DNA from: Candidatus Acidiferrum sp.
Lineage (GTDB): Bacteria > Vulcanimicrobiota > Vulcanimicrobiia > Vulcanimicrobiales > Vulcanimicrobiaceae
NCBI GenBank assembly: GCA_035507095.1
Contig: DATJOM010000074.1
Span: 3,941 to 67,940 of the forward strand
Direction of reading: 5' to 3'
Length of the DNA stretch: 64,000 bases
The translations under genes were made by a program, and so were the position numbers. Each line of letters opens with the position of its first letter. Position 1 is the first letter of the stretch. Below the pieces are notes generated by a model, which ran no database searches, was not told the DNA's origin, and saw only the letters and a list, made by a program, of their open reading frames with translations. Below, piece by piece: positions 10,530 through 46,172 of the stretch.

Positions 10530-11666
10530 TCAGAAGACTCCTTGCCCTGAGAAGATGCGGGCGATGTCATGGAAAGCAACCATCAGCATGAGCGCCATCA
10601 GCGCGGCGAACCCGGCGAGATGCACGAGTGCTTCTTTGTCGGGATCGACCGGTTTTCCGCGCAGCAGCTCAGCAATGATGAACGCCGCGCGTCCACCGTC
10701 GAGCGCGGGAATCGGCAGCAGATTGAAGAGGCCTAGCGCAAACGAGATCGTTGCCGCTAGCGAAAGATACGGCCCCCATCCAAAGTCTTGCACGATGCCC
10801 GCAACTTGCCCCATTCCAACGACGCCCGACACTTGTCCCGCGTATTTCGTAAAGTGCGTGAAGAGCAGGCCCAGCGACATGAACGTTGTATCCGCGATGT
10901 TCTGGTATTCGATCGCGCTGTCGCGCACCGCGACCCCGAACGGCACGCGCTCGAAAGCTTGTACCGGTGAGAAGCCGATGCACCCGAGCTTTTGACCCGG
11001 TGACGGACACGGCTTCGGTTGCGTGACGAACATGCTTTGCTGGCCGTCGCGCACGTAGGTCACTTCAATGGTCTTGCCGAGCGAGCCGTGGATCGTGTCG
11101 ACAAGTTTGCTTGCATTGGTGACGTCACGCCCATCGACACGCACGCCGACGATACGGTCGCCGGGACGCAAACCGTGCGTCGCCGCCGGATAGCCTTGCA
11201 CCACCGTGTAAACGATCGCGCGGTCGACACGATCGCTCGGCACGCCGAAGACGACCGCACCAAAAAGCAAAATGACGTAGGCAAGGATAAAGTTCATCGC
11301 CGGTCCCGCGAGGATGATCGCTAATCGCCGCCAGGGATTCTTGCCTTGGAAATTGTTCGCTGCGTCGCTCGGCGCGGCACGAAATTCGCGCTGCTGCTCG
11401 GCTTCAGAGGTCTTGTTGTCCTCGCCTTCCATCGCGCAGTAGCCGCCGATGGGCAACAGGCGCAGGGAGTATTGGGTGCCGGTGCGCGGACTCACCCACG
11501 CAAAGAGCTTCGGCCCGAAGCCGACCGCGAACTCCATCACGTGCACGCCATTACGCCGCGCCAGGATGTAGTGACCAAATTCGTGCAGCACGATCAACAG
11601 CGAGAGCATCACGAGGAACGTGATGACCTTGTCGATCGAGACGAGCGTAATCGCTGCTAACAACAC
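10530..11666 (-). CDS. rseP: RIP site-2 metalloprotease (M50, RseP-like)
   Basis: HEFGHY zinc motif in the first TM helix. Internal PDZ-like region. C-terminal NLLPIPALDGG motif. GTG start. Confidence 0.88.
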   Translation of the reverse strand: MLLAAITLVSIDKVITFLVMLSLLIVLHEFGHYILARRNGVHVMEFAVGFGPKLFAWVSPRTGTQYSLRLLPIGGYCAMEGEDNKTSEAEQQREFRAAPSDAANNFQGKNPWRRLAIILAGPAMNFILAYVILLFGAVVFGVPSDRVDRAIVYTVVQGYPAATHGLRPGDRIVGVRVDGRDVTNASKLVDTIHGSLGKTIEVTYVRDGQQSMFVTQPKPCPSPGQKLGCIGFSPVQAFERVPFGVAVRDSAIEYQNIADTTFMSLGLLFTHFTKYAGQVSGVVGMGQVAGIVQDFGWGPYLSLAATISFALGLFNLLPIPALDGGRAAFIIAELLRGKPVDPDKEALVHLAGFAALMALMLMVAFHDIARIFSGQGVF

Positions 11667-35073: not shown

Positions 35074-35170
35074 CGGTCCTAACTCTCGACCTTGGCTTTG
35101 TAAGGTCCTCGTTTGTTAGAGCGAGTACACAATGACTTTGCGCTTGCGGGTCTAACCTATCGGTGGCGTT

Positions 35171-36109
35171 ATGTCACGGTACTTCGAGTTTTTCGGCCTC
35201 GAACGCGACCCGTTCTTGGATACGGCCGACCCGTTTTTCTATTGCGAGTTCGGCGCGTTGCGTAAGGCGAAGGAGCGGCTTTACGCCTCGGTCGACGCGT
35301 CGCGCGGCCTCACCGTGATTTTGGGTGACCCAGGCACCGGAAAGACCAGCCTCTCGGGCGCGCTCGAGCAGGAGCTCCTTGCCGACGACCGGGTCGTGCT
35401 CGCGAAGATTCTCGATCCCGCGTTCGCGACCGAGATCGAGTTTCTGATCGCTATCGGGCGCGTCTTCGGCCTCGCGCTGCCGCCGCGATCGAGCGCCGCC
35501 CTCAAGAATGCGCTCAAGAACTTCTTCTTCGAGACGGCGATCCTCGAGAAGCGCAACCTCGTGCTGACGATCGACGAAGCGCAGAACCTCAGTGACGAGA
35601 ACCTCGAAGCACTGCGCTTGCTCTTGAACTATCACGTGCCGCAGCGAAAGCTGCTCAATATCTTGCTCTTTGGGCAGAGCGAGCTAGCCGACCGCATCCG
35701 CGCCAAGGGGAACCTCGAAGATCGCGTCGATGGGTGGATTCGGCTCGCCCGGCTCGATCCGGGAATGGCCTCGGCGGTGCTCGATTTCCGCCTTTCCAAG
35801 GCGGGCTTGCTGCCCGAGCGCCAACTCTTCACGCCGGACGCGCGCACCCAGCTGGTCGACGCCGCAGACGGCCTGCCGCGCCGGCTCACGATGCTGGCGC
35901 ACGCCGCGATGCAAGAAGCGGCTGACCGCGCGAGCACCCTGGTCAACGAAGATCACGTCCGCTCGGCGATGCTGGCGCGCGGCATCGCGCCGCACGCGCC
36001 CGCGTCCCCCGTACGGACCGAGAACGGGGTCGTCGAAGCCGGCGAGGCCATTGCGACGCAGCCGGCGCGTGGGCTCCTTGGCCGCCTCTTTGCACGCCGC
36101 TCGTCATGA
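35171..36109 (+). CDS. ExeA/MshM-like AAA+ ATPase
   Basis: N-terminal FFGLERDPF motif. Walker A GDPGTGKTS and Walker B LVLTIDEAQNL. Overall layout of ExeA-type (AAA_22) secretion/EPS-associated ATPases. Confidence 0.75.
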   Translation: MSRYFEFFGLERDPFLDTADPFFYCEFGALRKAKERLYASVDASRGLTVILGDPGTGKTSLSGALEQELLADDRVVLAKILDPAFATEIEFLIAIGRVFGLALPPRSSAALKNALKNFFFETAILEKRNLVLTIDEAQNLSDENLEALRLLLNYHVPQRKLLNILLFGQSELADRIRAKGNLEDRVDGWIRLARLDPGMASAVLDFRLSKAGLLPERQLFTPDARTQLVDAADGLPRRLTMLAHAAMQEAADRASTLVNEDHVRSAMLARGIAPHAPASPVRTENGVVEAGEAIATQPARGLLGRLFARRSS

Positions 36110-37545
36110 ATCGCGAGCCGGACTTTGAGTCCAGCGCCGACATGCGACTGCTCGAGCTGCAACGCTCGTCGCTCGGGCTCGTGGCGCCGGAGCGCGCGGC
36201 GTGGGAATCTCGCTACGCCGTAGACTCCACCCCCGGTGTCGACGTCACGCTGGAAACGCCGGCCCCGAGCAGCGCGGTGCTCGCGGTAACGCTGACGGCA
36301 ACCCCGCCGGGGGACGTGATCCCCGGCACGGTCATTACGTACGCGCTGAGCCTGGTGAACGACGGAGCCGCGGCGGCGACCGCGGTGGTCGCGGCGGTGC
36401 CGCTCCCTGCCGGCGTCTCATACCGGCTCGGCTCGCTGCAAATCGACGGCAGGCCAGCCGACGACAGCAGTGCCGATCGCCTCTTCGCAAGCGGGTTCGA
36501 GCTGCGCACCGTGGCCCCGGGAAGTCGCGCGACGCTGCTCTGGAAAGTCGGCGTCCGGATGGGCACCAAGCCCCTGATCGTCATTCCGCAGGTGCGCGCG
36601 CGCGCGACCGCGATCATCGGTGGCGGCCCGGTGGTCGTCGAACGCAAGGGCGCAACCGGCGCCTTCGCCGGAGAACTCGCCGCAGCCGATCGCGTCATGT
36701 TTGAGCCGCAACCCTTGATTCCGGTCGAGATCCCGGCTGATGAGCTCCCCATCTACGAACTCGACGCCGAAGAGCAAATCGTCTACGAGGCCGCCGATGC
36801 AGCGCTGTCCAGCGCCGCCCCGCCACCCGAACCGCTCGCCGAGCCGGAACCGCAGATCATCCCCGAACCGGCAACGGAGCCGGCACCGCCGCGCGAGGCC
36901 GTCGTCCTGTACGGCGCGCTCGAGCGTCCTACACTCGCCTTCTTCGAGCGCGTTTTCAATGGGTCGAAAGATCCGACGATCTTACAGCATTGCATCTTTG
37001 CAAGCGCGCTGGCGTGCGCCGTTGACGTCGACGGCACCGACGCCGTCGGCTTGCGGGCGCACCTCTCGGCGCAGTCGCAGATTCTTCATCGCGCCTCTTT
37101 GCATGAAAAGCTCGGCAAGAAAGAGCCGATCAGCGAGTACGCCGGCCAGTTGCTCGCCAAGATCGACGCGATCGCGCCGGTCCCGGTGCATCCCGTCGCG
37201 CAATTTAGCACGGATCGTCTGGTGCTCGCGAACGAACTTCACGAGCCCGCACTCGTGGTCGTGCGCAAGATCGCCGAAGAACGGGAGCGTTGGGACTTCA
37301 TCAAAGCGCGTCAACTCACGCTCGCGTTGCAGGCACAGCGCGTCGTGCTGGCGGACGACGCAAAGGCTGCCAACATCGACAACGCACTTCGGGCCTACGC
37401 ACAACACGCGATGACGGTCTTACAGAAGCTCTTCGTGCGCTTGCGACTGGATAAAACCACGGGCGTGCTCTTCCAGACCGAGCCGTCGCTCGATAACGCC
37501 GCGCGCGCGCTGCTCGCCGCGTGCGCCGCCGCAATGCCGAGTTGA
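36106..37545 (+). CDS. hypothetical protein: DUF11-like beta domain, proline/glutamate-rich linker, helical C-terminal domain
   Basis: ATGA overlap with the upstream gene. LTATPPGDVIPGTVITYALSLVNDGAAAATAVVAAVPLPAGVSYRLGSLQIDG resembles the conserved-repeat (DUF11) fold pattern. Linker PPPEPLAEPEPQIIPEPATEPAPP. No signal peptide seen. Confidence 0.55.
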   Translation: MNREPDFESSADMRLLELQRSSLGLVAPERAAWESRYAVDSTPGVDVTLETPAPSSAVLAVTLTATPPGDVIPGTVITYALSLVNDGAAAATAVVAAVPLPAGVSYRLGSLQIDGRPADDSSADRLFASGFELRTVAPGSRATLLWKVGVRMGTKPLIVIPQVRARATAIIGGGPVVVERKGATGAFAGELAAADRVMFEPQPLIPVEIPADELPIYELDAEEQIVYEAADAALSSAAPPPEPLAEPEPQIIPEPATEPAPPREAVVLYGALERPTLAFFERVFNGSKDPTILQHCIFASALACAVDVDGTDAVGLRAHLSAQSQILHRASLHEKLGKKEPISEYAGQLLAKIDAIAPVPVHPVAQFSTDRLVLANELHEPALVVVRKIAEERERWDFIKARQLTLALQAQRVVLADDAKAANIDNALRAYAQHAMTVLQKLFVRLRLDKTTGVLFQTEPSLDNAARALLAACAAAMPS

Positions 37546-38309
37546 AACTCCTTCTCGGCATTCCCAGCGCCGGTGCACCCGCCGCCCCATTTCTCGAGAG
37601 CCTCGCAAAGCTCGAACTCCCGCCGTCGGCCGAGCAATTCACGCGCTGCGTGATCACCGGTAACTATGTGCCGGCGCAACGCGATCTCATCGTTGAACGC
37701 GCGCTCGAATCGAGCGCCGACATCCTCATCATGTGTGACGACGATATGGTGTTACCGCCGCATGCGGTCACCCGGCTCTGCGCAACGCTCGAAGCAAACC
37801 CGCGAGCTGCAATCGCCGGCGCGCTCTACTATTCGCGCGATGGCTTCCGGCCTATGGTCGTCGATAAGTGGAACGAGCACGACACGCGGACAGCCATCAT
37901 CCCCGCCTTCGATCGCGAGCCGGTGGCCGTCGACGGTGTCGGCTTCGGATGCGTCGCCTTGCGGGTTAGCGCGTTACGCGAATTGATGCCACCGTACTTC
38001 GCAGCGCACATCTTCGTGGAACGCGAAGCCGGCCGCGTTCGGGTATGCGACGAGGACTATCTGTTTTGCGCGAGAGTGCGGCGAGCGAGATGGTCGGTCG
38101 TGCTCGACCCAAACGTTCGCTGCGGGCACTACAACCGCCAGCTCCAGCGCACGATGCCGGATGTATGGGAAGGACCTGAAGTTACCGCGCAGGCGCGCAT
38201 CGCCGCGCTCGTTGACGGACGCCCGACGCTGATTCCGGAACAAGACGTCCGGGAAAGCACGGCGGAATCGCAGGTTCAGGCCGATTTGCGGTACATCATC
38301 GTACCGTAG
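37521..38309 (+). CDS. GT-A (family 2-like) glycosyltransferase-like protein
   Basis: ILIMCDDDMVLPP (DxD-type) and VCDEDYLFCARVRRARWSVVLDPNVRCGH (GT2 ED..L/F.C.R motif). Alternative TTG start at 37542 forms a TTGA overlap with the upstream stop. Confidence 0.55.
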   Translation: MRRRNAELKLLLGIPSAGAPAAPFLESLAKLELPPSAEQFTRCVITGNYVPAQRDLIVERALESSADILIMCDDDMVLPPHAVTRLCATLEANPRAAIAGALYYSRDGFRPMVVDKWNEHDTRTAIIPAFDREPVAVDGVGFGCVALRVSALRELMPPYFAAHIFVEREAGRVRVCDEDYLFCARVRRARWSVVLDPNVRCGHYNRQLQRTMPDVWEGPEVTAQARIAALVDGRPTLIPEQDVRESTAESQVQADLRYIIVP

Positions 38310-38315
38310 AAAAGT

Positions 38316-38693
38316 TCAGCGAGCGTCGTTGAGGATTGCGCCGTTCTGCTGGCGCCTGCCGATAACCGACCGCGCATACGCTTTCCAGCGCGAAATTAAC
38401 TGCAAGCGGCCACCCGACTCATCTTGAAAGCGCTGCAAGCGCTTGAGCTGCCATTCGCGGTACTCAAGAATGCGGCGCACACGCGTGGCGATCTCGTTGT
38501 CGAATTCGGCCGTCCGCTCGGCCTGCGCTGCCTCCCATGCGTTCATCACCGCATGACGTGCACGGCCCATGTCGGAGAGCAGGTGTTCGAAGGCCGTCCA
38601 GTCGCGTCGATCGATCAAGGGACCAAGCTCGCGACACTGGACCTCGAGTTCGGTAACGCCGGTTCGAACGTCTTCGAGTGCCGACCTAGCCAA
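38316..38693 (-). CDS. hypothetical helical protein in the FliT position downstream of fliS
   Basis: 125 aa, helical and charged sequence. 8-nt overlap with the fliS stop. Assignment by position only. Confidence 0.4.
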   Translation of the reverse strand: MARSALEDVRTGVTELEVQCRELGPLIDRRDWTAFEHLLSDMGRARHAVMNAWEAAQAERTAEFDNEIATRVRRILEYREWQLKRLQRFQDESGGRLQLISRWKAYARSVIGRRQQNGAILNDAR

Positions 38694-39144
38694 CGGCCGC
38701 GAATGTCGACGTCATACCGTCGCCTCCAGCAAGCCCCGTCTGTCCTCGCTTTTGCGCCTTGAACTGCGTCACGGCGACGTTCCAGGTGTCGCGGTATTCG
38801 CGCGCGTACCCGAGGATGCGCTCGACCCGCGTCGGGTCTTTGCGCATGTTCGCCATCACCAACTCGCGATGCCAGAAGCCATACACGCGCAGCAGATTCT
38901 CCGAGAGCTCGCCGCCAATTTCCATGTTCAGTGAGCTCATCAACACGGTGCAAGCACGCTGCCCACGTAACAGCGCCTTGTGGATGCCTTCGATGTCGTC
39001 GCGCTCGTTCACCAGTTTCTCGTGCGCCTGTTGCGTCGCAATTATCAGGACATCGAAGATCTTCACGATGAGATCCTCGGGCGCCGCAGTGAGAATCGAC
39101 GTCTCGAGATAGGTCTGCTGCTCGTTGTTCTTCCGCGTCGCCAT
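38686..39144 (-). CDS. fliS: flagellin-specific export chaperone FliS
   Basis: YLETSILTAAPEDLIVKIFDVLI...GELSENLLRVYGFWHRELVMAN, typical FliS four-helix pattern. Confidence 0.9.
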   Translation of the reverse strand: MATRKNNEQQTYLETSILTAAPEDLIVKIFDVLIIATQQAHEKLVNERDDIEGIHKALLRGQRACTVLMSSLNMEIGGELSENLLRVYGFWHRELVMANMRKDPTRVERILGYAREYRDTWNVAVTQFKAQKRGQTGLAGGDGMTSTFAAVG

Positions 39145-39146
39145 TA

Positions 39147-41147
39147 CTAGCTGCCCGATCCCGACGTGCTACTGGTAGTCGAGAATCCGAAGACCGACGC
39201 GAGTTCTTGCTGTTCGGCTTGAAGGCCCGCGATCGCGGTTTCACTCGCGACGAATCCCGTGCGCAGCGAGTTCGCCTGCGCGTTAGCTGCATCGGTAATC
39301 TGCGTCACCTGCTGCTGCAGGTTTGTAATCGTATCGTTGTTGCCGTTCTCGTCGTTCTGTATTAGCGAGACCGACGGTACCGTACCGACCGGACCCGCGT
39401 TGAGCAAGGTGGGTGCTCCGGTCACGGTTGCCAGGTACGAGCCCAACTGCGTGGTCAAGCTATTCGCGCCGACGAGTAATGCTTGCACGGCGCTCGGGTT
39501 CGCCTGCAGCGCCGCGAGGAATGAGTTCACATCGAGCGGCGCGAGCAGCCCGCTCGTTCCGTCAATGGTTTGCTGCTGCACGGGTGAATTGCCCGGGCCC
39601 TGATCGTCGATGCTCGTCGCTTCAACCGTCGCAAAGGAACTATTGAGCAACAAGCCGGCCTGCGAGAGGGAATTGTAGGTTGGGTTGTTGCCGAGGAATC
39701 CACCGACGATGTCTTCGAGTTGCGGAATAATCGTCGAGACCGACGGGTCGCCCCACAACACGCCGCCCGGTACCGACTGCGCGATCGAATTCGTGCCGGG
39801 TTGAATCGCGAGCACGATCGGCGGAGCCGTCGCATTGTTGATCTCGTTGACCGCGGCATTATAGACCGAGACGAAGTTTTGCACCGCCGACACCAGCAAC
39901 GAATTGTTCTGCGTCACATTCAACGTGAACGGCGTCGTGGTATTCCCGGAGATTGAAAGCGAAATGCCGGGGATCGCATTGGTAACCGTGTTCGAGTTAT
40001 TGTAGTAGGTGCTCGACGAGCCGTCAGGATTCTCGACCGTGATCGCCGACTGCTGACCAACCGTCGTCGTGGCGCCGCTCGCCGCCGTCAATCCGGCCGC
40101 GGCCAAGAAATTGCTCGTGTCGCCGGACGCGCCGAGCACGATGCTCTGCGGTCCGGAGTTCGTATTGGTCAACTCGATCTGCCCGGTGATCGCATTGAAG
40201 ACCGCGGTCACGCCGGCGGAGCTACTGTTGATCTCGTTCAGAATGTCGTTGAGATTCTGACCGCTGGTGACCTGAATCTTCACGCCGTTGATCGTGAAGG
40301 TTCCGGCCGTCACCGGCGTTACGAAGCCCGCGTCGTTGGTCGAGTTGAAGTCGGCATCCGGGTTGATGCCACCGACGTCCGCGGTGCCTTCGATGAACCC
40401 GCCGCTGCCGCTGTTAATCAACTGCGCGTTGCTCAACTGGAACACGCTCAGCAAATTGCCCTGGTCTTGCACGCTGCCGAGCGAGATCTGCTGATCGCTC
40501 GACGTGAATTCGACCTTGCCGTTCACCAGCGTCGCCAAGAACCCCGCGTCGGCTTGCGAGTCGACCTGTGAGGTAATGTTGTTCAGGATTTGGTTGAGCG
40601 ATTGCCCGTCGACGTTGTATGAGATCGACACGCCGTCAACCGTGACCGACCCGTCGCCATTCGTTCCGTTCGAGGGAACCACGCTCGCGTAAGAGTATGC
40701 GAGCGGTACGGTGTTCGACGCCTGACCGGCATACGGACCGCTCGTGAGCGTGTCGGTGATCGAATGGCCCGCGGTCGCGCTCGAAAGAATCGACGTGTTC
40801 GTGGCGGCCTTCACGCTCTCGATCGTGTACAGTCCCGGCGTTGCGCTCACGCCGGGAACGCCGGAAGCCGAAAGCGCCGAGCTGCTCGACGTCGCTTGAT
40901 ACGTGTCGAAGAGGTCGGGGTTCGAAAGATTCCCGAGCGCGTTCTGCACGCTGCTCAGCAAGTTGCTGATCTTGATCAGCTCGGCGTTTGCGTTGTTTAG
41001 CGTCGCGATCTGCGCGTTGAGCTGCGTCGTCGGCGCGAGGCTCAGCTGCGTCAGCTTTTCGATGATGGAATTATAGTCGATGCCCGAGACGATCCCCGGG
41101 AACGAGATCGGCGCAGCGTTGGTGCCGAGAGTACCGCCAGTTGACAC
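39147..41147 (-). CDS. fliD: flagellar filament cap protein (hook-associated protein 2)
   Basis: N-terminal ISFPGIVSGIDYNSIIEKLTQLSLAPTTQLNAQI and a C-terminal FliD_C-type coiled coil (...LRTGFVASETAIAGLQAEQQ). 666 aa. Confidence 0.9.
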   Translation of the reverse strand: MSTGGTLGTNAAPISFPGIVSGIDYNSIIEKLTQLSLAPTTQLNAQIATLNNANAELIKISNLLSSVQNALGNLSNPDLFDTYQATSSSSALSASGVPGVSATPGLYTIESVKAATNTSILSSATAGHSITDTLTSGPYAGQASNTVPLAYSYASVVPSNGTNGDGSVTVDGVSISYNVDGQSLNQILNNITSQVDSQADAGFLATLVNGKVEFTSSDQQISLGSVQDQGNLLSVFQLSNAQLINSGSGGFIEGTADVGGINPDADFNSTNDAGFVTPVTAGTFTINGVKIQVTSGQNLNDILNEINSSSAGVTAVFNAITGQIELTNTNSGPQSIVLGASGDTSNFLAAAGLTAASGATTTVGQQSAITVENPDGSSSTYYNNSNTVTNAIPGISLSISGNTTTPFTLNVTQNNSLLVSAVQNFVSVYNAAVNEINNATAPPIVLAIQPGTNSIAQSVPGGVLWGDPSVSTIIPQLEDIVGGFLGNNPTYNSLSQAGLLLNSSFATVEATSIDDQGPGNSPVQQQTIDGTSGLLAPLDVNSFLAALQANPSAVQALLVGANSLTTQLGSYLATVTGAPTLLNAGPVGTVPSVSLIQNDENGNNDTITNLQQQVTQITDAANAQANSLRTGFVASETAIAGLQAEQQELASVFGFSTTSSTSGSGS

Positions 41148-41155
41148 GGTGTTGG

Positions 41156-41551
41156 CTACGCTTTCTTGTCGAGAGTGACGCCGTCGATCTGATCGAAGAA
41201 TTCGGCCAAACCAATGAGCTCTTGCGGGGGAAATTGTGCGACCTCTTCACCTGTCTCCGGATTGGTGAAGACGGTCACGACGAGTTGGAGTTCGCTGACG
41301 TACTTGTAGGAAATCGCGAGCTGCGGCGAAGTAGCCGACGATCCGGACGTGCTTCCGACGTTGTAGAGTTTGGCAACCACCGATGCAATCGTCGAGGATT
41401 CGCCGGCTTGATGGGGAGGCGGTGCAGCGGCAGAGGAACTAGAAGAGGTCGCCGGCGCCTGTTGCGCTGCAGCAACCTCCGTTGTTTGGGGTGTTTGCGG
41501 CACCCCTTCGCCTTGACCGGTACCAGCCGCGGCGACGGTCTGAACGTCCAT
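41156..41551 (-). CDS. flaG: flagellar protein FlaG
   Basis: C-terminal LQLVVTVFTNPETGEEVAQFPPQELIGLAEFF matches the FlaG family pattern. Sits immediately upstream of fliD. Confidence 0.8.
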   Translation of the reverse strand: MDVQTVAAAGTGQGEGVPQTPQTTEVAAAQQAPATSSSSSAAAPPPHQAGESSTIASVVAKLYNVGSTSGSSATSPQLAISYKYVSELQLVVTVFTNPETGEEVAQFPPQELIGLAEFFDQIDGVTLDKKA

Positions 41552-41579
41552 GTTTACAATCCTTCTCCCGCTTCTTCCG

Positions 41580-41607
41580 TTTTCGACCTACACGGCCGCC
41601 TATTTTA
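41580..41607 (-). promoter_or_regulatory. sigma-28 (FliA/SigD)-like promoter candidate for flaG-fliD-fliS
   Basis: Minus strand TAAA-N16-GTCGAAAA (6 of 8 to GCCGATAA). Same 16-nt spacing as the fliC candidate. The leader then has three GGA motifs (cGGAagaagcgGGAgaaGGAtt) before the ATG. Confidence 0.4.
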
Positions 41608-43578
41608 GGCCCGGACCCCGGCCGCCTCGGCATAGGCGCCCAAAACCGTTTGGAGCGCCCGCAGCGGGTCGGCAATTTCGGCCGTCCGCTCGGCGATCTG
41701 GTGCCCGATCGCGGGGGCCCGCATCCAGGCCTGGCGCAGTGCCGTTGTCGCGCTTTCGAGCGAGGCAGGGTCAACCCCGCCCATAGCCTCCGGCCACAGC
41801 TGCGCGTAGGGCAGCGTCCGCGACATCACCGGGGGCACGCCGTGCGCCGCGGCGCGCGCCGCCCGCGAGGCGCCGTGGCCGGCCCAGGAAAGGTCGGCGT
41901 AGACCCGTGCACCCGCGTAGAACGCTGCCAGCTGCTCTGCCGTGAGCGCGTCTTCGGGAAGACAGACGAATTGGCTGCCCCCGATGCCAAGCAGCGCGTA
42001 ATAGTAATCAACCTCGACAACGGTCCCGACAAGGACGGCGGGCAGGCCGGCGGCCGCCAACGCGCGGGCTGCCAGAAACTGATTCCCGCGTGGATCGATG
42101 ATGCCATGGAGCAGGACGTATTCGTCGAGTCCGCTGATCGCGCCGATTGGATCGGTGGCCACCGGGCTCGCCGGTACACACGGGACCACACGCGACGCAC
42201 CGGTGAATGTGAAGAGCGCGCGAACGCGCGTTTCCTCTTCCGTGCTTGCGAAAATCACCGCGCGCGCCTGTTCCAGCAGGCGGCTTACCGCGCTCCGATC
42301 GTACGCCGGCGTCCCGCGCTCGTGTCCACCGCCCACGAGCAGCCGCCGCGCGATCAATCCGCGTTCGATTGACGCTTGCGCCATGTCATCGCGAACGCCG
42401 GTGAGCATCGTGCGAATCGCGCTCGAGCCCCAGAGTGCCTCGTGATCGAAATCATCCAAGAGCGGTGTGCTGACGACCGGCACGGCAAGGCGCTTCGCTT
42501 CTTCCAGCACAGGGCCGAATTGATGGGCGTGGCGATGGCCGAAGACGTGTATCAGATCGAAGCTCTCGGCCCGCGCTGCGGACGCGACACTGAGCTTCGC
42601 GTTGAAACCCTGTACGCAAAGCGCGTTGACCAGGTCGCGTGCCTGATCGACGTCGGCATCGGGCACGGTGAGTCCGTTGTCGCGGATCACGACGAGAATG
42701 TGGCCTTCCGAACCGCCGATGACCGGAGCGCCCACGAGGCGATTCGCGCGCAGGATCGGCTCACGCGATCGAACGCCGAAGCGGCGGATCTCGGGGCCGT
42801 CCTGCAGATCGAACGAACAGGCTACCGATGCAAAGAGTGGACGTGCGACGCCGACGGTTCGCGCGCTTTCACCGTTGTCATCCAAACTCAGCGAGGCTGC
42901 CGCGTCGGCACTGTGCGCGGGCGCGATCGAAACGTCGAACGCCGCGCGTGGCAGATCGCCGTACACCCCCAGGCCATACCAGGCGCGTGCGTGCTCGTTA
43001 CGTGCCGGAGTGCCAAGATCGGCATGCACGCTTGCCGCGATCCCAGCCAGCAATGACGCGCCGAGTCCGCCGTCAGCCGATCGGATTCCAACGCGCCGTC
43101 CCTTGGCAAAGCGCTGCGCGTAGACGTACGGTGCGGCGTCCGCCAGCACAACATCGACCGGTGCCGCACACAGGAAGCGCGACGCACGCGCCGCGGCAAA
43201 CGTTTCGCGCGCCTGCACGCTCTCGGTGAAGTAGCCGATTCGCTCCTCGATGATCCCACCGAGCAGCGCGTGCGAAAGGAGCCAGGGCTCAACGCGTTCC
43301 TCGATTTCAGGCAAGGTCTGTTCTTCGAGCGGCAGCCACGATGGCCAGATCAGCGGGCTCGATTCGCGAACGCTGATCATCGTGGGATCGATTTGTACGA
43401 AGGGAAGGAGCACGATCTCGCCGTCACGCTGAAATACGAGATCCATCCAGCCCTGTGGCCAATTGCAATACGACGGCTGCAGCCGCGCCGCGAGCAAATA
43501 CGGCGCACCGACGACGCGCGCAAATCGTCCAGGCTCGCTGAACGGCGCATAGCGCCCCATCTGCGAATGGCGTCTCAT
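41605..43578 (-). CDS. GT4/GT1-like glycosyltransferase with large N-terminal domain of unknown function
   Basis: ORF 41605..43677 trimmed to the ATG at 43578 (ATGA overlap with the upstream stop). C-terminal half shows a GT-B pattern (HVFGHRHAH..., ...AARAAAHGVPPVMS). Confidence 0.62.
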   Translation of the reverse strand: MRRHSQMGRYAPFSEPGRFARVVGAPYLLAARLQPSYCNWPQGWMDLVFQRDGEIVLLPFVQIDPTMISVRESSPLIWPSWLPLEEQTLPEIEERVEPWLLSHALLGGIIEERIGYFTESVQARETFAAARASRFLCAAPVDVVLADAAPYVYAQRFAKGRRVGIRSADGGLGASLLAGIAASVHADLGTPARNEHARAWYGLGVYGDLPRAAFDVSIAPAHSADAAASLSLDDNGESARTVGVARPLFASVACSFDLQDGPEIRRFGVRSREPILRANRLVGAPVIGGSEGHILVVIRDNGLTVPDADVDQARDLVNALCVQGFNAKLSVASAARAESFDLIHVFGHRHAHQFGPVLEEAKRLAVPVVSTPLLDDFDHEALWGSSAIRTMLTGVRDDMAQASIERGLIARRLLVGGGHERGTPAYDRSAVSRLLEQARAVIFASTEEETRVRALFTFTGASRVVPCVPASPVATDPIGAISGLDEYVLLHGIIDPRGNQFLAARALAAAGLPAVLVGTVVEVDYYYALLGIGGSQFVCLPEDALTAEQLAAFYAGARVYADLSWAGHGASRAARAAAHGVPPVMSRTLPYAQLWPEAMGGVDPASLESATTALRQAWMRAPAIGHQIAERTAEIADPLRALQTVLGAYAEAAGVRA

Positions 43579-46172
43579 TTCGCCGTGACTCCGAGCGCGC
43601 GTCGTAGCGCACTGGGGCTTCGATCGCGCAGCGTGCGCACGTCGATCCAACGCCGATCGCTCTGCTGCGCCATCCATGCCTGCTCGCTATCGTAATCGGT
43701 GATGTCGATGTCGGCACACTGCGCAGGCGCGATCTCCGCCTTCTCGAGAATGCGCTCGACGCGACCACCGATCGTCATCGCGTCCGGTTCGCCGAACGCA
43801 GCGATCGCGAGCGCGACGCGATCATCCAGTTTGAACGCAACGGCGAAGCGGCGCACGAACTGCGCCACTTCCGTCCACTCTGCCTCGTTACGGACGGCTA
43901 CCGCGAAGACCGCGCGCGCGTCTCCCAACGGGTCGGCCGGCGCGACCTCGACGGTTACGGCCTGCGACTCGCGGACAACCGGCAGCGGATGGTAATGTTC
44001 GGCCGTCTTGAACCCGCGCGCATGTGCCTGGTCGGCGCTGTAGCCCGCTGCGGGAAGCGATCCCGAAAATCCCCATTTCTTCGCAAAGCGTTCCCAATTC
44101 GCGTTCATCGTGGCCGAATAGTCGACGTTGTTTGCCACAAACGACCGGCTGCCGAAATGATGGATGAAGACATCGTTGCAGACGTAGATCAAATAGCCCG
44201 CAGCGCGCACGCGCATGCAGTAGTCATCGTCCTCGAAGTTCCCGATCGCGTAGCCTTCGTCGAGGCCTCCAATTTGCTCGAGTACCTCGCGGCTGATGCA
44301 CCAGCAGAATCCGATCGCCCGATCGGTGACGTAGCCGTTCCCCGCGTACGCGCGACGCCGTTCAAGTGCGAATGCTTGCATCTCGTTTTCGTCGCGATAA
44401 CCGGCTTCGGGCAACTGTTGATCGCCCGCTACCAAGTTGCTCCGCGGCGCGGAGATACCGAGGCCGGGGATACGTCGAAACGCATCGACCAGACTGTCGG
44501 CCCAACCCGGCGTTACTATGACGTCATTGTTCAAGAGGATGACGTACTTCCCGAGCGCGTGCGCGATCCCGTCGTTGTTGCCTCCGGCAAATCCGCGGTT
44601 CGTTTTGTTGTAGATAATCCGCACGTGCGGATCGTCGATCGTTGCCAACGCCTTAAGCGTCTCGGGCCCCGAACCGTTATCGACGACGATGACCTCGTAG
44701 GGCTCGGCGGTGTGCTGCCGGATCGACTCGAGCGCCTTCATCGTAAACTCGGGCGCGTTCCAGCTCAACGTGACGATCGAGAGCAGACCGCGCTCGAATG
44801 CCGGCCGGGAACGCAGGACGCGCTCGATCGCTTCGGGTGAACGATCGAGGACCTCGGGAAACGTGCTTGGCGCCAACCGCGCGAGCGAATGCGCAGCCAC
44901 GGTTCCGCGACCGAGCTGCAGCCCGCGCGTGAGGAAATCGACCGTGGCAGCGTCGAGCGAAGAGAAGTCGCCGAGCCTGAGATGTTGAGGGAACATGCGC
45001 AGGCGTAAGAGGACGCAACGCGCATCGCTGGTTGCCATCGGCTCGTGCGTCCCGCGCCGTACGCCGTCGGCGAAGGTTGCAGCCGCGCCATTTGTCGGCG
45101 CGGTAGAACGCGCGAGCAATTCGTCGAGCCAGCCTTCTCCGAGCTGCGTGTCTGCACGGACGAAGGCCACGAAGCGTTCGCCGCGCAGGTCCATGAGTTC
45201 GCGCGCACGCTCGACGGCGTCATTTGCGCTGCACCAGACGATTGCACCGACCGGCGAGCGATTGGCGCGAATGGCTTGCTCGAAGGTGGCGCGATCGAAG
45301 TCCGCGGGAACGCCATGGACGAGCACGTCGATCGGCAAGGTTTTCAAGAGCCCGAGCATCTCGCCGCCATTTCCCGAGCGACGCACGCTTTCGTAAACAC
45401 CGGCGTCGACAAATCGCCGCGCCGCATCAAACTCTACCTTGTTGTGCCAACGATCACCGAGTCGCTGCAGGTTCGGTTGCATGCGACGAAAGCGCTGCGT
45501 GCCGGACTGCGATTCGAAGTGAATCAGCGAGGCAGCGGGTTCGTAGAGCACCCGGAGCCCACGTTCGCGCACCTTCAGGCAAAAATCGACGTCCTCGTTG
45601 CCGTTCCAATAGCCTTCGTCGAGACCGCCTAATTCGAGGTACAGTTCGCGCGGCGTCGCAAGGCACGCCCCCGTTACAACTTGATAATCGCGCGCGACCT
45701 GCGCATCCTTACACGCGTCGTCGAGCTCGCTGTACCAGAAGTGAAATGGCTGCATCCCGATTGCGCTGTACGGCCACCAACGTATTGCCACGCCCGCGTG
45801 CTGAATTGCGCGATTTGGAAAGAGCAGCTTCGCCCCGACGATGCCGATACTCGGGTCCTCGAATCGACGCATGACCGGCGCGAGCCATTGACTGATGGGT
45901 TCGGTATCGTTATTGAGCAAGACGAGGATGCGGCCACGCGCCGCGCGCGCCCCCTGATTGTTCGCGCCCGCGAACCCGAGATTCGTCTCATTACGAATCG
46001 CGCGGATCCACGGAAATTGTGCGAGAACCTCTTGCGTGTGGTCGGTCGACGCGTTGTCGATTACGATCACTTCACCTTCACCGGCACCCTCGAGCGACGG
46101 GCGAAGCTTGCTCAGACAATTTCGCGTCAGGTCCGCCTTGTTGAAGACGGGAATGATGATCGAGTAGTCCAC
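43575..46172 (-). CDS. tandem GT2 glycosyltransferase (two family-2 catalytic domains)
   Basis: Domain 1: YSIIIPVFNKADLTRNCL...VIVIDNASTDHT...NLGFAGANNQGA...LLNNDTEP. Domain 2: LSIVTLSWNAPEFTMKAL...VIVVDNGSGPET...NRGFAGGNNDGI...LLNNDVIV. Confidence 0.85.
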   Translation of the reverse strand: MDYSIIIPVFNKADLTRNCLSKLRPSLEGAGEGEVIVIDNASTDHTQEVLAQFPWIRAIRNETNLGFAGANNQGARAARGRILVLLNNDTEPISQWLAPVMRRFEDPSIGIVGAKLLFPNRAIQHAGVAIRWWPYSAIGMQPFHFWYSELDDACKDAQVARDYQVVTGACLATPRELYLELGGLDEGYWNGNEDVDFCLKVRERGLRVLYEPAASLIHFESQSGTQRFRRMQPNLQRLGDRWHNKVEFDAARRFVDAGVYESVRRSGNGGEMLGLLKTLPIDVLVHGVPADFDRATFEQAIRANRSPVGAIVWCSANDAVERARELMDLRGERFVAFVRADTQLGEGWLDELLARSTAPTNGAAATFADGVRRGTHEPMATSDARCVLLRLRMFPQHLRLGDFSSLDAATVDFLTRGLQLGRGTVAAHSLARLAPSTFPEVLDRSPEAIERVLRSRPAFERGLLSIVTLSWNAPEFTMKALESIRQHTAEPYEVIVVDNGSGPETLKALATIDDPHVRIIYNKTNRGFAGGNNDGIAHALGKYVILLNNDVIVTPGWADSLVDAFRRIPGLGISAPRSNLVAGDQQLPEAGYRDENEMQAFALERRRAYAGNGYVTDRAIGFCWCISREVLEQIGGLDEGYAIGNFEDDDYCMRVRAAGYLIYVCNDVFIHHFGSRSFVANNVDYSATMNANWERFAKKWGFSGSLPAAGYSADQAHARGFKTAEHYHPLPVVRESQAVTVEVAPADPLGDARAVFAVAVRNEAEWTEVAQFVRRFAVAFKLDDRVALAIAAFGEPDAMTIGGRVERILEKAEIAPAQCADIDITDYDSEQAWMAQQSDRRWIDVRTLRDRSPSALRRALGVTAK

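Follow-up and report, generated by a model that had tools for sequence, protein, structure and literature searches.

What is the function of three overlapping genes that lie between sugar genes and late flagellar genes in a member of the Eremiobacterota? We addressed this question in a window of 64,000 nucleotides (the whole stretch of DNA that was analysed). The first-pass annotation had described three plus-strand genes there and recognised in them no described system. All three open reading frames (ORFs) are present, and neither annotations, which read 'hypothetical' or 'TIGR01451 repeat protein' only, nor our literature search yielded a description of the module. The genes, referred to here as A, B and C, and their surroundings are as follows.

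35128..35155, plus strand: promoter-like two-block motif CACAA[AT]GACTTT-N11-12-G[TC]C[TA]AA, ~40 nt upstream of the A start codon
35171..36109, plus strand: gene A, ORF of 312 aa, predicted cytoplasmic ExeA-type AAA_22 P-loop ATPase
36106..37545, plus strand: gene B, ORF of 479 aa, multi-domain protein, ATGA overlap with A
37542..38309, plus strand: gene C, 255 aa from TTG 37542, predicted short GT-A (GT2-like) glycosyltransferase, optional member
37521..38309, plus strand: gene C from its alternative start, GTG 37521, ORF of 262 aa
38316..38693, minus strand: FliT-like gene (by position), 125 aa, convergent, stop 6 nt from the stop of C
38686..41551, minus strand: filament-stage operon fliS, fliD, flaG (Pfam FliS, FliD_N/C, FlaG), convergent

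Gene coupling and genomic neighbourhood

The sequence contains the ATGA overlap claimed for A and B at 36106-36109, and a TTGA overlap joins B and C at 37542-37545. For the latter junction, the first-pass annotation had left a choice between TTGA and a 25-nt overlap. Among related loci, B and C overlap by 4 nt at 32 of 42 junctions, and C has a modal length of 255 aa; C in the window therefore most likely starts at TTG 37542 and not at GTG 37521. The A–B coupling is conserved as well: 50 of 71 loci have a gap of -4 or -1 nt, and the recurrent overlaps at both junctions (4 nt or 1 nt for A–B and 4 nt for B–C) point to stoichiometric co-production. A search between the genes for RNA elements or terminators gave no signal above noise. 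Among sequencing runs searched for evidence of expression, the stretch was found in three wetland DNA metagenomes only, and in zero RNA runs. The two-block motif upstream of A occurs once in the window and lies at the same distance from A in about 50 of 67 loci, whichever gene is upstream. A sigma-28 (FliA/SigD) promoter for the operon was considered and rejected, as the motif lacks the CGA core of TAAA-N15-16-GCCGA[AT]; flaG in these loci carries a sigma-28-type promoter, CTAAA-N15-16-GCCGA. The A–B–C operon converges on fliDST and is not co-transcribed with it.

We sampled 75 genome loci and five more distant metagenome loci. Gene A lies directly upstream of B in 74 of the 75 genome loci, which are all those that extend far enough. 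The first-pass annotation had named a lack of co-occurrence outside this genome as grounds for refutation; the genes do co-occur, in about 80 loci across deep divergence and always beside fliS and fliD. What is conserved, though, is the A–B pair and not an obligate trio: C is optional, with repeated losses and a presence in 44 of 77 loci. As C is absent from the other 33, the core function must be something other than glycosyltransfer by C. In loci with enough flanking sequence, B or B–C is always followed by the convergent fliT-like gene, fliS, fliD and flaG, and then by glycosyltransferase and flagellin genes, a layout that is the same in distant relatives with B identities of about 27–35%. 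The 125-aa FliT-like gene adjoins fliS in all loci; the copy in the window has no Pfam match, and one orthologue weakly matches PF05400 FliT (E 0.15). The upstream neighbours of the module are always sugar genes, but their content varies, and only about 30 of the 75 loci have sulfation genes next to A. The position originally described, between sulfation and flagellar genes, therefore holds on the flagellar side in every locus that reaches it, whereas the sulfation side is lineage-specific.

The module is set in an island of sugar-synthesis and glycosyltransferase genes interleaved with fliC, flaG, fliD and fliS. We searched this island for Wzx, Wzy, ABC exporter, Wza and Wzc genes and found none, which argues that the acceptor of the glycan is probably cytoplasmic, namely flagellin. 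Neither an exosortase/PEP-CTERM system nor a chain-length determinant was found in the 64-kb window. The B family is restricted to the Eremiobacterota, an abundant soil phylum, to which every named source belongs. A genome scan of the cultured member of this phylum returned no B locus; this organism, the only one in culture, lacks flagella and flagellin (PMC9758169), which provides a phyletic hint of a flagellar link. Part of the synteny seen inside one phylum may be due to shared descent and not to function. We also considered an anti-phage defence system and rejected it: PADLOC gave generic P-loop matches for A only and no match of its models to B, C or the 125-aa gene, and inheritance of the module is vertical and phylum-wide.

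Domain architecture of the three proteins

The domain assignments made at first pass were borne out for all three proteins, with AAA_22 in A, DUF11/TIGR01451 at threshold in B and a marginal GT2 match in C. Gene A matches AAA_22 with an E value of 1e-20. Escherichia coli K-12 GspA, which is matched around Walker A only (E 0.01), proved too divergent as a yardstick, and Aeromonas ExeA was used instead. Residues 4-272 of A (269 residues) align with Aeromonas caviae ExeA at 33% identity (BLASTP, E 8e-28), an alignment that identifies A by sequence as a true homologue of the ATPase domain that ExeA has in the cytoplasm. Its best NCBIfam match is TIGR03015, the XrtA/PEP-CTERM-associated ATPase, and the alignment is full-length (A residues 4-264 against model positions 2-260 of 269), with a score of 123.9 bits (E 7.6e-36) that does not reach the cut-off of 324.5. 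As had been stated at first pass for ExeA-type ATPases, homologues of A (31–34% identity) are found in exopolysaccharide (EPS) and XrtA/PEP-CTERM loci, and those in EPS loci adjoin chain-length determinants and tyrosine kinases. Across 69 orthologues, conservation reaches at least 95% in the N-terminal motif FFGLERDPF, in Walker A (GDPGTGKTS) and in Walker B (IDEAQNL), and the conserved Walker motifs predict that A is probably active as an ATPase. Matches to PF21327 (GspA_C39-like) and PF01471 (PG_binding_1), both of which occur in Aeromonas ExeA, were sought in A and not found. In a hydropathy scan that is too crude for calling transmembrane (TM) segments, since even those of ExeA and ExeB score low, the most hydrophobic 19-residue stretches of A fall within the ATPase core and the hydrophobic maxima lie inside folded domains. 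Gene A ends in a short tail.

36065..36097, plus strand: C-terminal tail of A, RGLLGRLFARR, MinD-like, after a variable linker of 17-38 aa

The motif [FL][FL]xR[LI]FxR occurs within the last 20 residues of 66 of the 69 A orthologues, and a Gly precedes it in 41 of these 66. The resemblance is visible when the C terminus of E. coli MinD, KKGFLKRLFGG, is set beside the A tail RGFLSRLFARR of locus L055. The helical hydrophobic moment of the A tail is modest (0.19, versus 0.45 for MinD). We infer that the tail is a putative membrane-binding helix; alternatively, it may serve to dock A to a partner.

Gene B combines five segments.

36118..36180, plus strand: conserved N-terminal peptide PDFExSADMRLLELQRxxLGL, predicted helix at residues 11-22
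36268..36645, plus strand: DUF11-type beta-sandwich, residues ~55-180
36712..36810, plus strand: acidic motif PLIPVEIPADELPIYELDxEE..YEAADAALS, with invariant P, Y, E, L and D columns
36811..36891, plus strand: Pro/Glu-rich linker, PEPEPQ-type, of variable length
36892..37542, plus strand: C-terminal alpha/beta domain (modelled), 220 residues, no relative in the libraries searched

As claimed at first pass, B has no signal peptide. Its N-terminal peptide is invariant or nearly so in the B alignment and is retained in relatives at about 30% identity; the acidic motif is retained in distant relatives as RPFYE[LS]D..E. The linker spans roughly 20 aa here, compared with hundreds of residues in a 743-aa relative (P0172). 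The DUF11 assignment straddles the thresholds, with TIGR01451 at 25.5 bits (above the cut-off of 24) and PF01345 at 21.9 bits (below the cut-off of 24.6), and the B family profile matches many giant DUF11-repeat proteins. This domain is modelled as a confident beta-sandwich (pLDDT 85-92) with matches to Ig-like folds only. The C-terminal domain, which carries conserved free Cys and His residues, had been described as helical; AlphaFold2, run with 66 sequences, instead models a compact alpha/beta domain (pLDDT 95.2, pTM 0.91). Foldseek searches with this domain gave a best E value of 1.3 (TM <=0.25) against the PDB and 0.8 against viral structures (BFVD), and hmmsearch against PDB sequences gave a non-significant best E value of 0.74. 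Pfam scans of all 66 members returned no consistent or significant match, and a search for stand-alone or out-of-phylum copies recovered Eremiobacterota fragments only. Given the confident prediction and the lack of a structural or sequence relative in the libraries searched, the domain may represent a new fold.

Gene C gives marginal matches to PF00535 (GT2; 23.6 bits, cut-off 23.3) and PF13506 (GT21; 23.7 bits, cut-off 21.7), and no sequence relative of C was found in the PDB. The motifs DDD, YYSRDG, VDGVGFGC, DEDY and GHYNR are conserved across 43 orthologues, among which DDD and DEDY reach at least 95% at most positions. C is predicted to be a short GT-A enzyme with an intact DxD-type motif.

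Candidate roles for the A–B pair

The first-pass annotation had suggested a module for assembly or quality control, acting on the glycan or on the flagellum. Our data make a link of A–B to the flagellum or the flagellin glycan likely; the role itself we infer. The reading that we prefer, with a probability of about 0.4, is that A–B constitutes an Eremiobacterota-specific, cytoplasmic and membrane-proximal ATPase–adaptor pair for flagellin glycosylation or filament-stage assembly. The strict synteny with filament genes, the conserved gene overlaps and the precedent of ExeA speak for it. Three observations tie the pair to the glycan: the coupling of B to the DxD glycosyltransferase gene C, the sugar island without exporters and the homologues of A in EPS loci. 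The most likely job of A–B would be to organise flagellin glycosylation ahead of export. In such a scheme, the MinD-like C-terminal helix of A would anchor the ATPase to the inner face of the membrane, where A would go through ATP-dependent cycles, and the invariant N-terminal helix of B would be the part that docks on A. The beta-sandwich, acidic motif and flexible Pro/Glu linker of B could then serve as a tether, and its C-terminal domain could hold a client, which might be flagellin, a flagellin–FliS complex or a glycosyltransferase. Where present, C would contribute a single sugar to a glycan that varies between strains. Because DUF11 domains are usually extracellular, B fits a cytoplasmic adaptor role poorly. 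The convergent orientation relative to fliDST, an upstream motif unlike the sigma-28-type promoter of flaG and the modest hydrophobic moment of the A tail also count against this reading.

Other readings place the pair elsewhere in the cell's programme. Given the MinD-like tail, A–B might, much as FlhF/FlhG or landmark proteins do, control the number or placement of flagella or a checkpoint of their assembly, unrelated to glycosylation; A would be a membrane-cycling switch like MinD/FlhG and B a scaffold that it positions. The strict co-location with flagellar genes, the dispensability of C and an operon motif that differs from the late sigma-28 class would all suit this idea. We consider it unlikely, as A is an AAA_22/ExeA-type and not a MinD/ParA-type ATPase, the neighbours are filament-stage and glycan genes rather than flhA, flhF or MS-ring genes, and the glycosyltransferase coupling in over half of the loci would be left without explanation. 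The module might also have no flagellar role and serve a general surface glycan of the EPS or LPS type, as TM-less ExeA-type ATPases of PEP-CTERM and capsule loci would, lying beside flagellar genes only by way of the variable glycan island. That the best curated family match of A is the XrtA/PEP-CTERM-associated ATPase, that A homologues in EPS loci lie by chain-length determinants and tyrosine kinases, and that the upstream neighbours are always sugar genes would be expected in that case. This explanation is nevertheless improbable: the fliT-like/fliS/fliD side is invariant and the glycan side variable, the island contains no flippase, polymerase, ABC exporter, Wza or Wzc, the TIGR03015 score of A falls far under the cut-off, and neither B nor its C-terminal domain is known from EPS loci.

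The DUF11 beta-sandwich and Pro-rich spacers, typical of surface proteins, raise the further idea that B is itself exported, for example by the flagellar type III apparatus, and is extracellular or filament-associated; A would then act as an ATP-dependent chaperone or loader of B, which might also be glycosylated by C. Gene B lacks a Sec signal, yet begins with an invariant peptide followed by a disordered stretch, and the export chaperone genes fliS and fliT-like adjoin the module. Flagellar export signals are usually poorly conserved, however, whereas the N terminus of B is nearly invariant. The conserved free Cys and His residues of the C-terminal domain also speak against export, B is not similar to flagellar axial proteins or FliK, and we know of no type III substrate that works with an ExeA-type ATPase. 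We regard export of B as very unlikely.

Returning to the ATPase–adaptor pair, a more specific and rather doubtful version is an energy-dependent checkpoint for flagellin glycosylation, in which A–B would use ATP to pass unfolded flagellin first to a changeable set of glycosyltransferases and afterwards on to FliS and the export gate. If true, this would be a new class of flagellar accessory machine, of a kind known in no other phylum, and an ExeA-type ATPase would have been relocated from the envelope to the cytoplasmic membrane face, where it uses an adaptor with an unseen fold. An ATP-driven adaptor would also give a new answer to the question of how glycosyltransferases reach flagellin before export. 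ExeA-type ATPases are widespread and their role is understood only for the type II secretin; we know of no mechanism for those without a TM segment (MshM and the PEP-CTERM/EPS-locus ATPases). With A tied phylum-wide to a defined partner and to a filament and glycan programme, the pair offers a tractable entry to this ATPase class, and the module is a lineage-specific marker of the Eremiobacterota motility apparatus.

Comparison with known systems

ExeA-type ATPases are accessory factors of envelope machines, acting on the secretin of type II secretion systems and on pilus number in Pseudomonas aeruginosa, and ExeA itself is an ATP-dependent assembly helper of such a machine (PMC6321873). Gene A shares with ExeA the ATPase domain, the N-terminal FFGL..PF and the Walker motifs, and as in ExeA–ExeB, the ATPase gene is followed by an adjacent or overlapping partner gene. 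Gene B also recalls ExeB in its short conserved N terminus, Pro-rich linker and C-terminal globular domain, which in ExeB is a binding domain. Unlike ExeA, A has a MinD-like tail in place of a TM segment and of the GspA_C39-like and PG_binding_1 domains; unlike ExeB/GspB, B lacks a TM segment and T2SSB (PF16537) and adds the DUF11 and unmatched C-terminal domains. Homology of B to GspB or ExeB was rejected at the level of sequence (hhalign probability <1% against both, no PF16537 match), which makes the ExeAB analogy one of layout only. The context also differs, as ExeA/ExeB serve a secretin and the present module lies among flagellar filament and glycan genes.

Like TIGR03015 and the TM-less ExeA-type ATPases of exopolysaccharide loci, A consists of the ATPase domain only, and it also shares with them a setting in a glycan gene cluster and coupling to the next gene (in those loci, sometimes). 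It departs from the TIGR03015 family in its low score, and those loci contain nothing related to B. The tail of A, G-[FL]-[FL]-x-R-[LI]-F at the extreme C terminus behind a flexible linker, resembles that of MinD/FlhG, from which A differs in not being a MinD/ParA-fold ATPase and in its lower amphipathic moment. Flagellin glycosylation islands with TPR-glycosyltransferases include Listeria GmaR, Caulobacter FlmG and the Clostridioides difficile flagellin modification loci. The island described here is like them in mixing glycosyltransferase and sugar genes with fliC, flaG, fliD and fliS and in its strain-level variation. We know of no ExeA-type ATPase or B-like protein in the GmaR, FlmG and C. 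difficile islands; here, in contrast, A–B forms the invariant, non-glycosyltransferase part of the island.

The A–B gene pair and an optional glycosyltransferase

The three plus-strand open reading frames proposed as an operon in the first-pass annotation are present in the window, and encode an ExeA-type ATPase (A), a partner protein with a DUF11-type domain (B) and a short GT-A glycosyltransferase (C). The features of this region are as follows.

35128–35155, plus strand: two-block motif upstream of A, single occurrence in the window
35171–36109, plus strand: gene A, 312 aa
36106–37545, plus strand: gene B, 479 aa
37521–38309, plus strand: gene C, 262 aa counted from GTG
38316–38693, minus strand: 125-aa FliT-like gene, adjoining fliS and found in all loci
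41605–43677, minus strand: gene for a 690-aa protein, with flaG on one side and the double-GT2 gene on the other

A and B are joined by an ATGA overlap at 36106–36109. For the B–C junction, either a TTGA or a 25-nt overlap had been proposed; the TTGA form, made up of the B stop codon and the TTG at 37542, is preferred to the GTG start at 37521. Because B and C overlap by 4 nt in 32 of 42 related loci, and the modal length of C among related loci is 255 aa, the true start of C is most likely 37542. The stop codons of C and of the convergent 125-aa gene lie 6 nt apart (38310–38315), and no terminator-like hairpin was found between the two genes; the two converging transcripts would need either to overlap or to end within the opposite gene.

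The trio had also been regarded as not belonging to a described system, and this still holds: at least 295 close homologues of B are all titled ‘hypothetical’ or ‘TIGR01451 repeat protein’, under the organism names Aquilonibacter, Baltobacteraceae and Eremiobacteraeota. A pattern-based scan that took a single genome for each prokaryotic species yielded 75 loci, which, five TPA-labelled MAGs apart, are labelled Eremiobacterota or Vulcanimicrobiota, with a few ‘bacterium’ or ‘uncultured bacterium’. The five (L002, L009, L011, L026 and L030; TPA SMAG assemblies) are labelled Acidoferrum, Acidiferrales or Verrucomicrobiia; given their 50–76% identity and full synteny, these bins probably belong to Eremiobacterota and have been mislabelled. 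In 74 of the 75 loci A is the gene immediately before B; the remaining contig is cut within B. Distant B-family members, recovered by exhaustive profile search, lie on contigs with the order AAA_22 ATPase, B, C or none, small gene, fliS, fliD; one such subfamily is named Candidatus Lustribacter and another search gave Candidatus Velthaea, both Eremiobacterota. Vulcanimicrobium alpinus, the sole cultured representative of the phylum, has neither flagella nor a flagellin gene (PMC9758169); the scan found no B locus in it, which is weak evidence because the scan was pattern-based.

By contrast, the idea of an obligate trio does not survive, because C was found in only 44 of 77 loci; A and B alone form the invariant unit. 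C is absent even from close relatives of C-bearing genomes and has therefore been lost repeatedly; translational coupling between it and A–B is common.

Some loci are irregular. Whole A–B–fliS–fliD clusters occur on three separate contigs of MAG MFD06092.bin.2.74 (L003, L012 and L014) and on two of MAG MFD04434.bin.1.187 (L005 and L048), with 76–81% identity to the window, which would mean either that the bins mix strains or that the flagellar loci are genuinely duplicated. The B frame is broken, or its best match split, in L029 (around 10817–11518), L041, L050, L061, L065, L066 and L071, probably through assembly frameshifts rather than as pseudogenes.

Architecture of the three proteins

The earlier domain calls (ExeA-like AAA+ ATPase for A, DUF11-like for B and GT-A-like for C) were borne out. 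A matches AAA_22 with an E value of 1e-20, and its best curated match is TIGR03015 (XrtA/PEP-CTERM-associated ATPase), full-length at 124 bits, below the curated cut-off of 324.5 bits. As a yardstick we used the exeA–exeB region of an Aeromonas caviae replicon, in which exeA, encoding a 571-aa protein with AAA_22, GspA_C39-like and PG_binding_1 domains, is followed by the gene for an ExeB that carries a T2SSB domain; E. coli K-12 GspA was dropped as too divergent. Residues 4–272 of A, the N-terminal FFGL..PF motif included, align with the cytoplasmic domain of this ExeA (33% identity, E 8e-28); A is thus a real ExeA-type ATPase without any envelope part of ExeA. Among 69 A orthologues, conservation is at least 95% for FFGLERDPF, Walker A (GDPGTGKTS) and Walker B (IDEAQNL), and 66 end in a [FL][FL]xR[LI]FxR tail, mostly preceded by Gly, after a variable linker of 17–38 residues. 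It is similar to the tail of E. coli MinD, KKGFLKRLFGG, a membrane-targeting amphipathic helix. Since calculation gives the A tail only a modest amphipathic moment, membrane binding by it is a hypothesis.

An alignment of 16 homologues and predicted structures resolve B into the following parts.

N-terminal peptide, PDFExSADMRLLELQRxxLGL: invariant in the 16-homologue alignment, with a helix at residues 11–22, and followed by a disordered stretch
Residues ~55–180: DUF11-type beta-sandwich (TIGR01451, 25.5 bits; pLDDT 85–92)
Acidic motif, PLIPVEIPADELPIYELDxEE: conserved in the alignment
Pro/Glu linker: about 20 to several hundred residues across the family
Residues ~258–479: C-terminal domain, modelled alone

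Foldseek matched the beta-sandwich to Ig-like sandwiches only. B carries no signal peptide, and in a hydropathy scan, a crude test, its most hydrophobic stretches fall inside the beta-sandwich. The C-terminal domain was modelled from 66 sequences with a pLDDT of 95.2 and a pTM of 0.91. No relative of it was found in a fold comparison with the PDB (best E 1.3, TM ≤0.25), in a sequence-profile search of the PDB, among viral predicted structures, or in a Pfam scan of all 66 members. When 5.8 billion proteins were searched by profile for stand-alone copies, only Eremiobacterota fragments came up. Compared with the PDB and viral predicted structures, the modelled domain would provisionally count as a new fold.

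The short GT-A enzyme C scores marginally against GT2 and GT21 and has conserved DDD, YYSRDG, VDGVGFGC, DEDY and GHYNR motifs; no sequence relative of it was found in the PDB.

Genomic setting and upstream signals

The minus-strand genes to the left of A are cysD, a fused cysNC and one for a TauE-type permease; further left come a sulfotransferase-like gene, a GT2-GT2-GT1 giant (Pfam families Glycos_transf_2 and Glyco_trans_1) and deoxysugar-tailoring genes. This sugar island spans about 17.7–35.07 kb and is flanked on its left by the housekeeping genes rpsB, dxr, rseP and ispG. Because no flippase, polymerase, ABC exporter or Wza/Wzc gene was found within the island, its glycan is probably built on a cytoplasmic acceptor. 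The Pfam matches accord with a flagellin glycosylation island.

All genes to the right of C are on the minus strand: the 125-aa gene, fliS, fliD and flaG come first, followed by those for the 690-aa protein, a double-GT2 protein, a GT2-TPR protein and flagellin, and then flgL, flgK and flgI. The 125-aa gene is called FliT-like by position only: the window copy has no match in a Pfam scan, and one of four tested orthologues touched PF05400 FliT at E 0.15. The 690-aa protein, which has no Pfam match, is kept in nearly all loci at 27–69% identity; in locus L081 a 670-aa GT2 protein takes its place.

About 40 nt before the start of A, the motif CACAA[AT]GACTTT-N11-12-G[TC]C[TA]AA recurs in about 50 of 67 loci, whatever gene lies upstream. 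Upstream of flaG, the same loci carry a clear promoter of the sigma-28 type, CTAAA-N15-16-GCCGA. Because the A-upstream motif is conserved and lacks the CGA core of the sigma-28 type, the A–B operon appears to have its own conserved putative promoter or operator. Searches for an Rfam family, a sigma-70 consensus site or an above-background terminator found none. The flaG promoter (41552–41607 in the window; L001–L079) has the form CTAAA-N15-16-GCCGA[AT] and is kept in most of about 70 loci; its window-clade form is GTCGAAAA, and a purine-rich GGAG leader follows it.

A possible role at the filament stage and relation to ExeA-type systems

The invariant A–B unit sits at the seam of a changeable sugar island and invariant filament-stage genes. 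We infer, with a probability of about 0.4, that A and B act as a cytoplasmic, membrane-proximal ATPase–adaptor pair at the filament stage, where their most likely job would be to organise flagellin glycosylation; C would be an optional extra transferase alongside them. It is doubtful that the pair instead assists surface-glycan synthesis in general and plays no part in the flagellum: the Cys genes lie upstream of A in about 30 loci and other sugar genes elsewhere, and downstream, wherever the contig reaches, the FliT-like gene, fliS, fliD, flaG, the 690-aa gene and GT2 genes follow.

ExeA-type ATPases help envelope machines, acting in type II secretin assembly and on pilus number in P. aeruginosa (PMC6321873). 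A role for A–B in flagellar number or placement is unlikely, about as much so as the surface-glycan reading. Still less probable is that B is exported and loaded by A. A defence role is unlikely.

Homologues of A occur in exopolysaccharide loci too, as a 440-aa protein in a Sphingomonas XrtA/PEP-CTERM locus and as a 284-aa ATPase-only protein in a Jannaschia locus, where its neighbours are a chain-length determinant and a tyrosine kinase. In the latter (L085; Jannaschia sp. CCS1 plasmid p1, 6983–9387), the gene for the TM-less ATPase overlaps the start of that for a 517-aa ‘LPS biosynthesis protein’ by 4 nt, and a CpsD/CapB tyrosine kinase follows; here too, within a capsule or EPS locus, an ATPase and a partner form a pair. 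A–B would be an accessory pair of the ExeA type that has shifted to the cytoplasm and become linked to a flagellar and glycan programme, with a partner domain for which the libraries searched hold no matching structure. In layout A–B resembles ExeA–ExeB: in each pair the ATPase is followed by a partner that starts with an N-terminal peptide and continues through a Pro-rich linker to a C-terminal binding domain. B has no detectable homology to ExeB or GspB, and A has only the ATPase part of ExeA, without the envelope parts.
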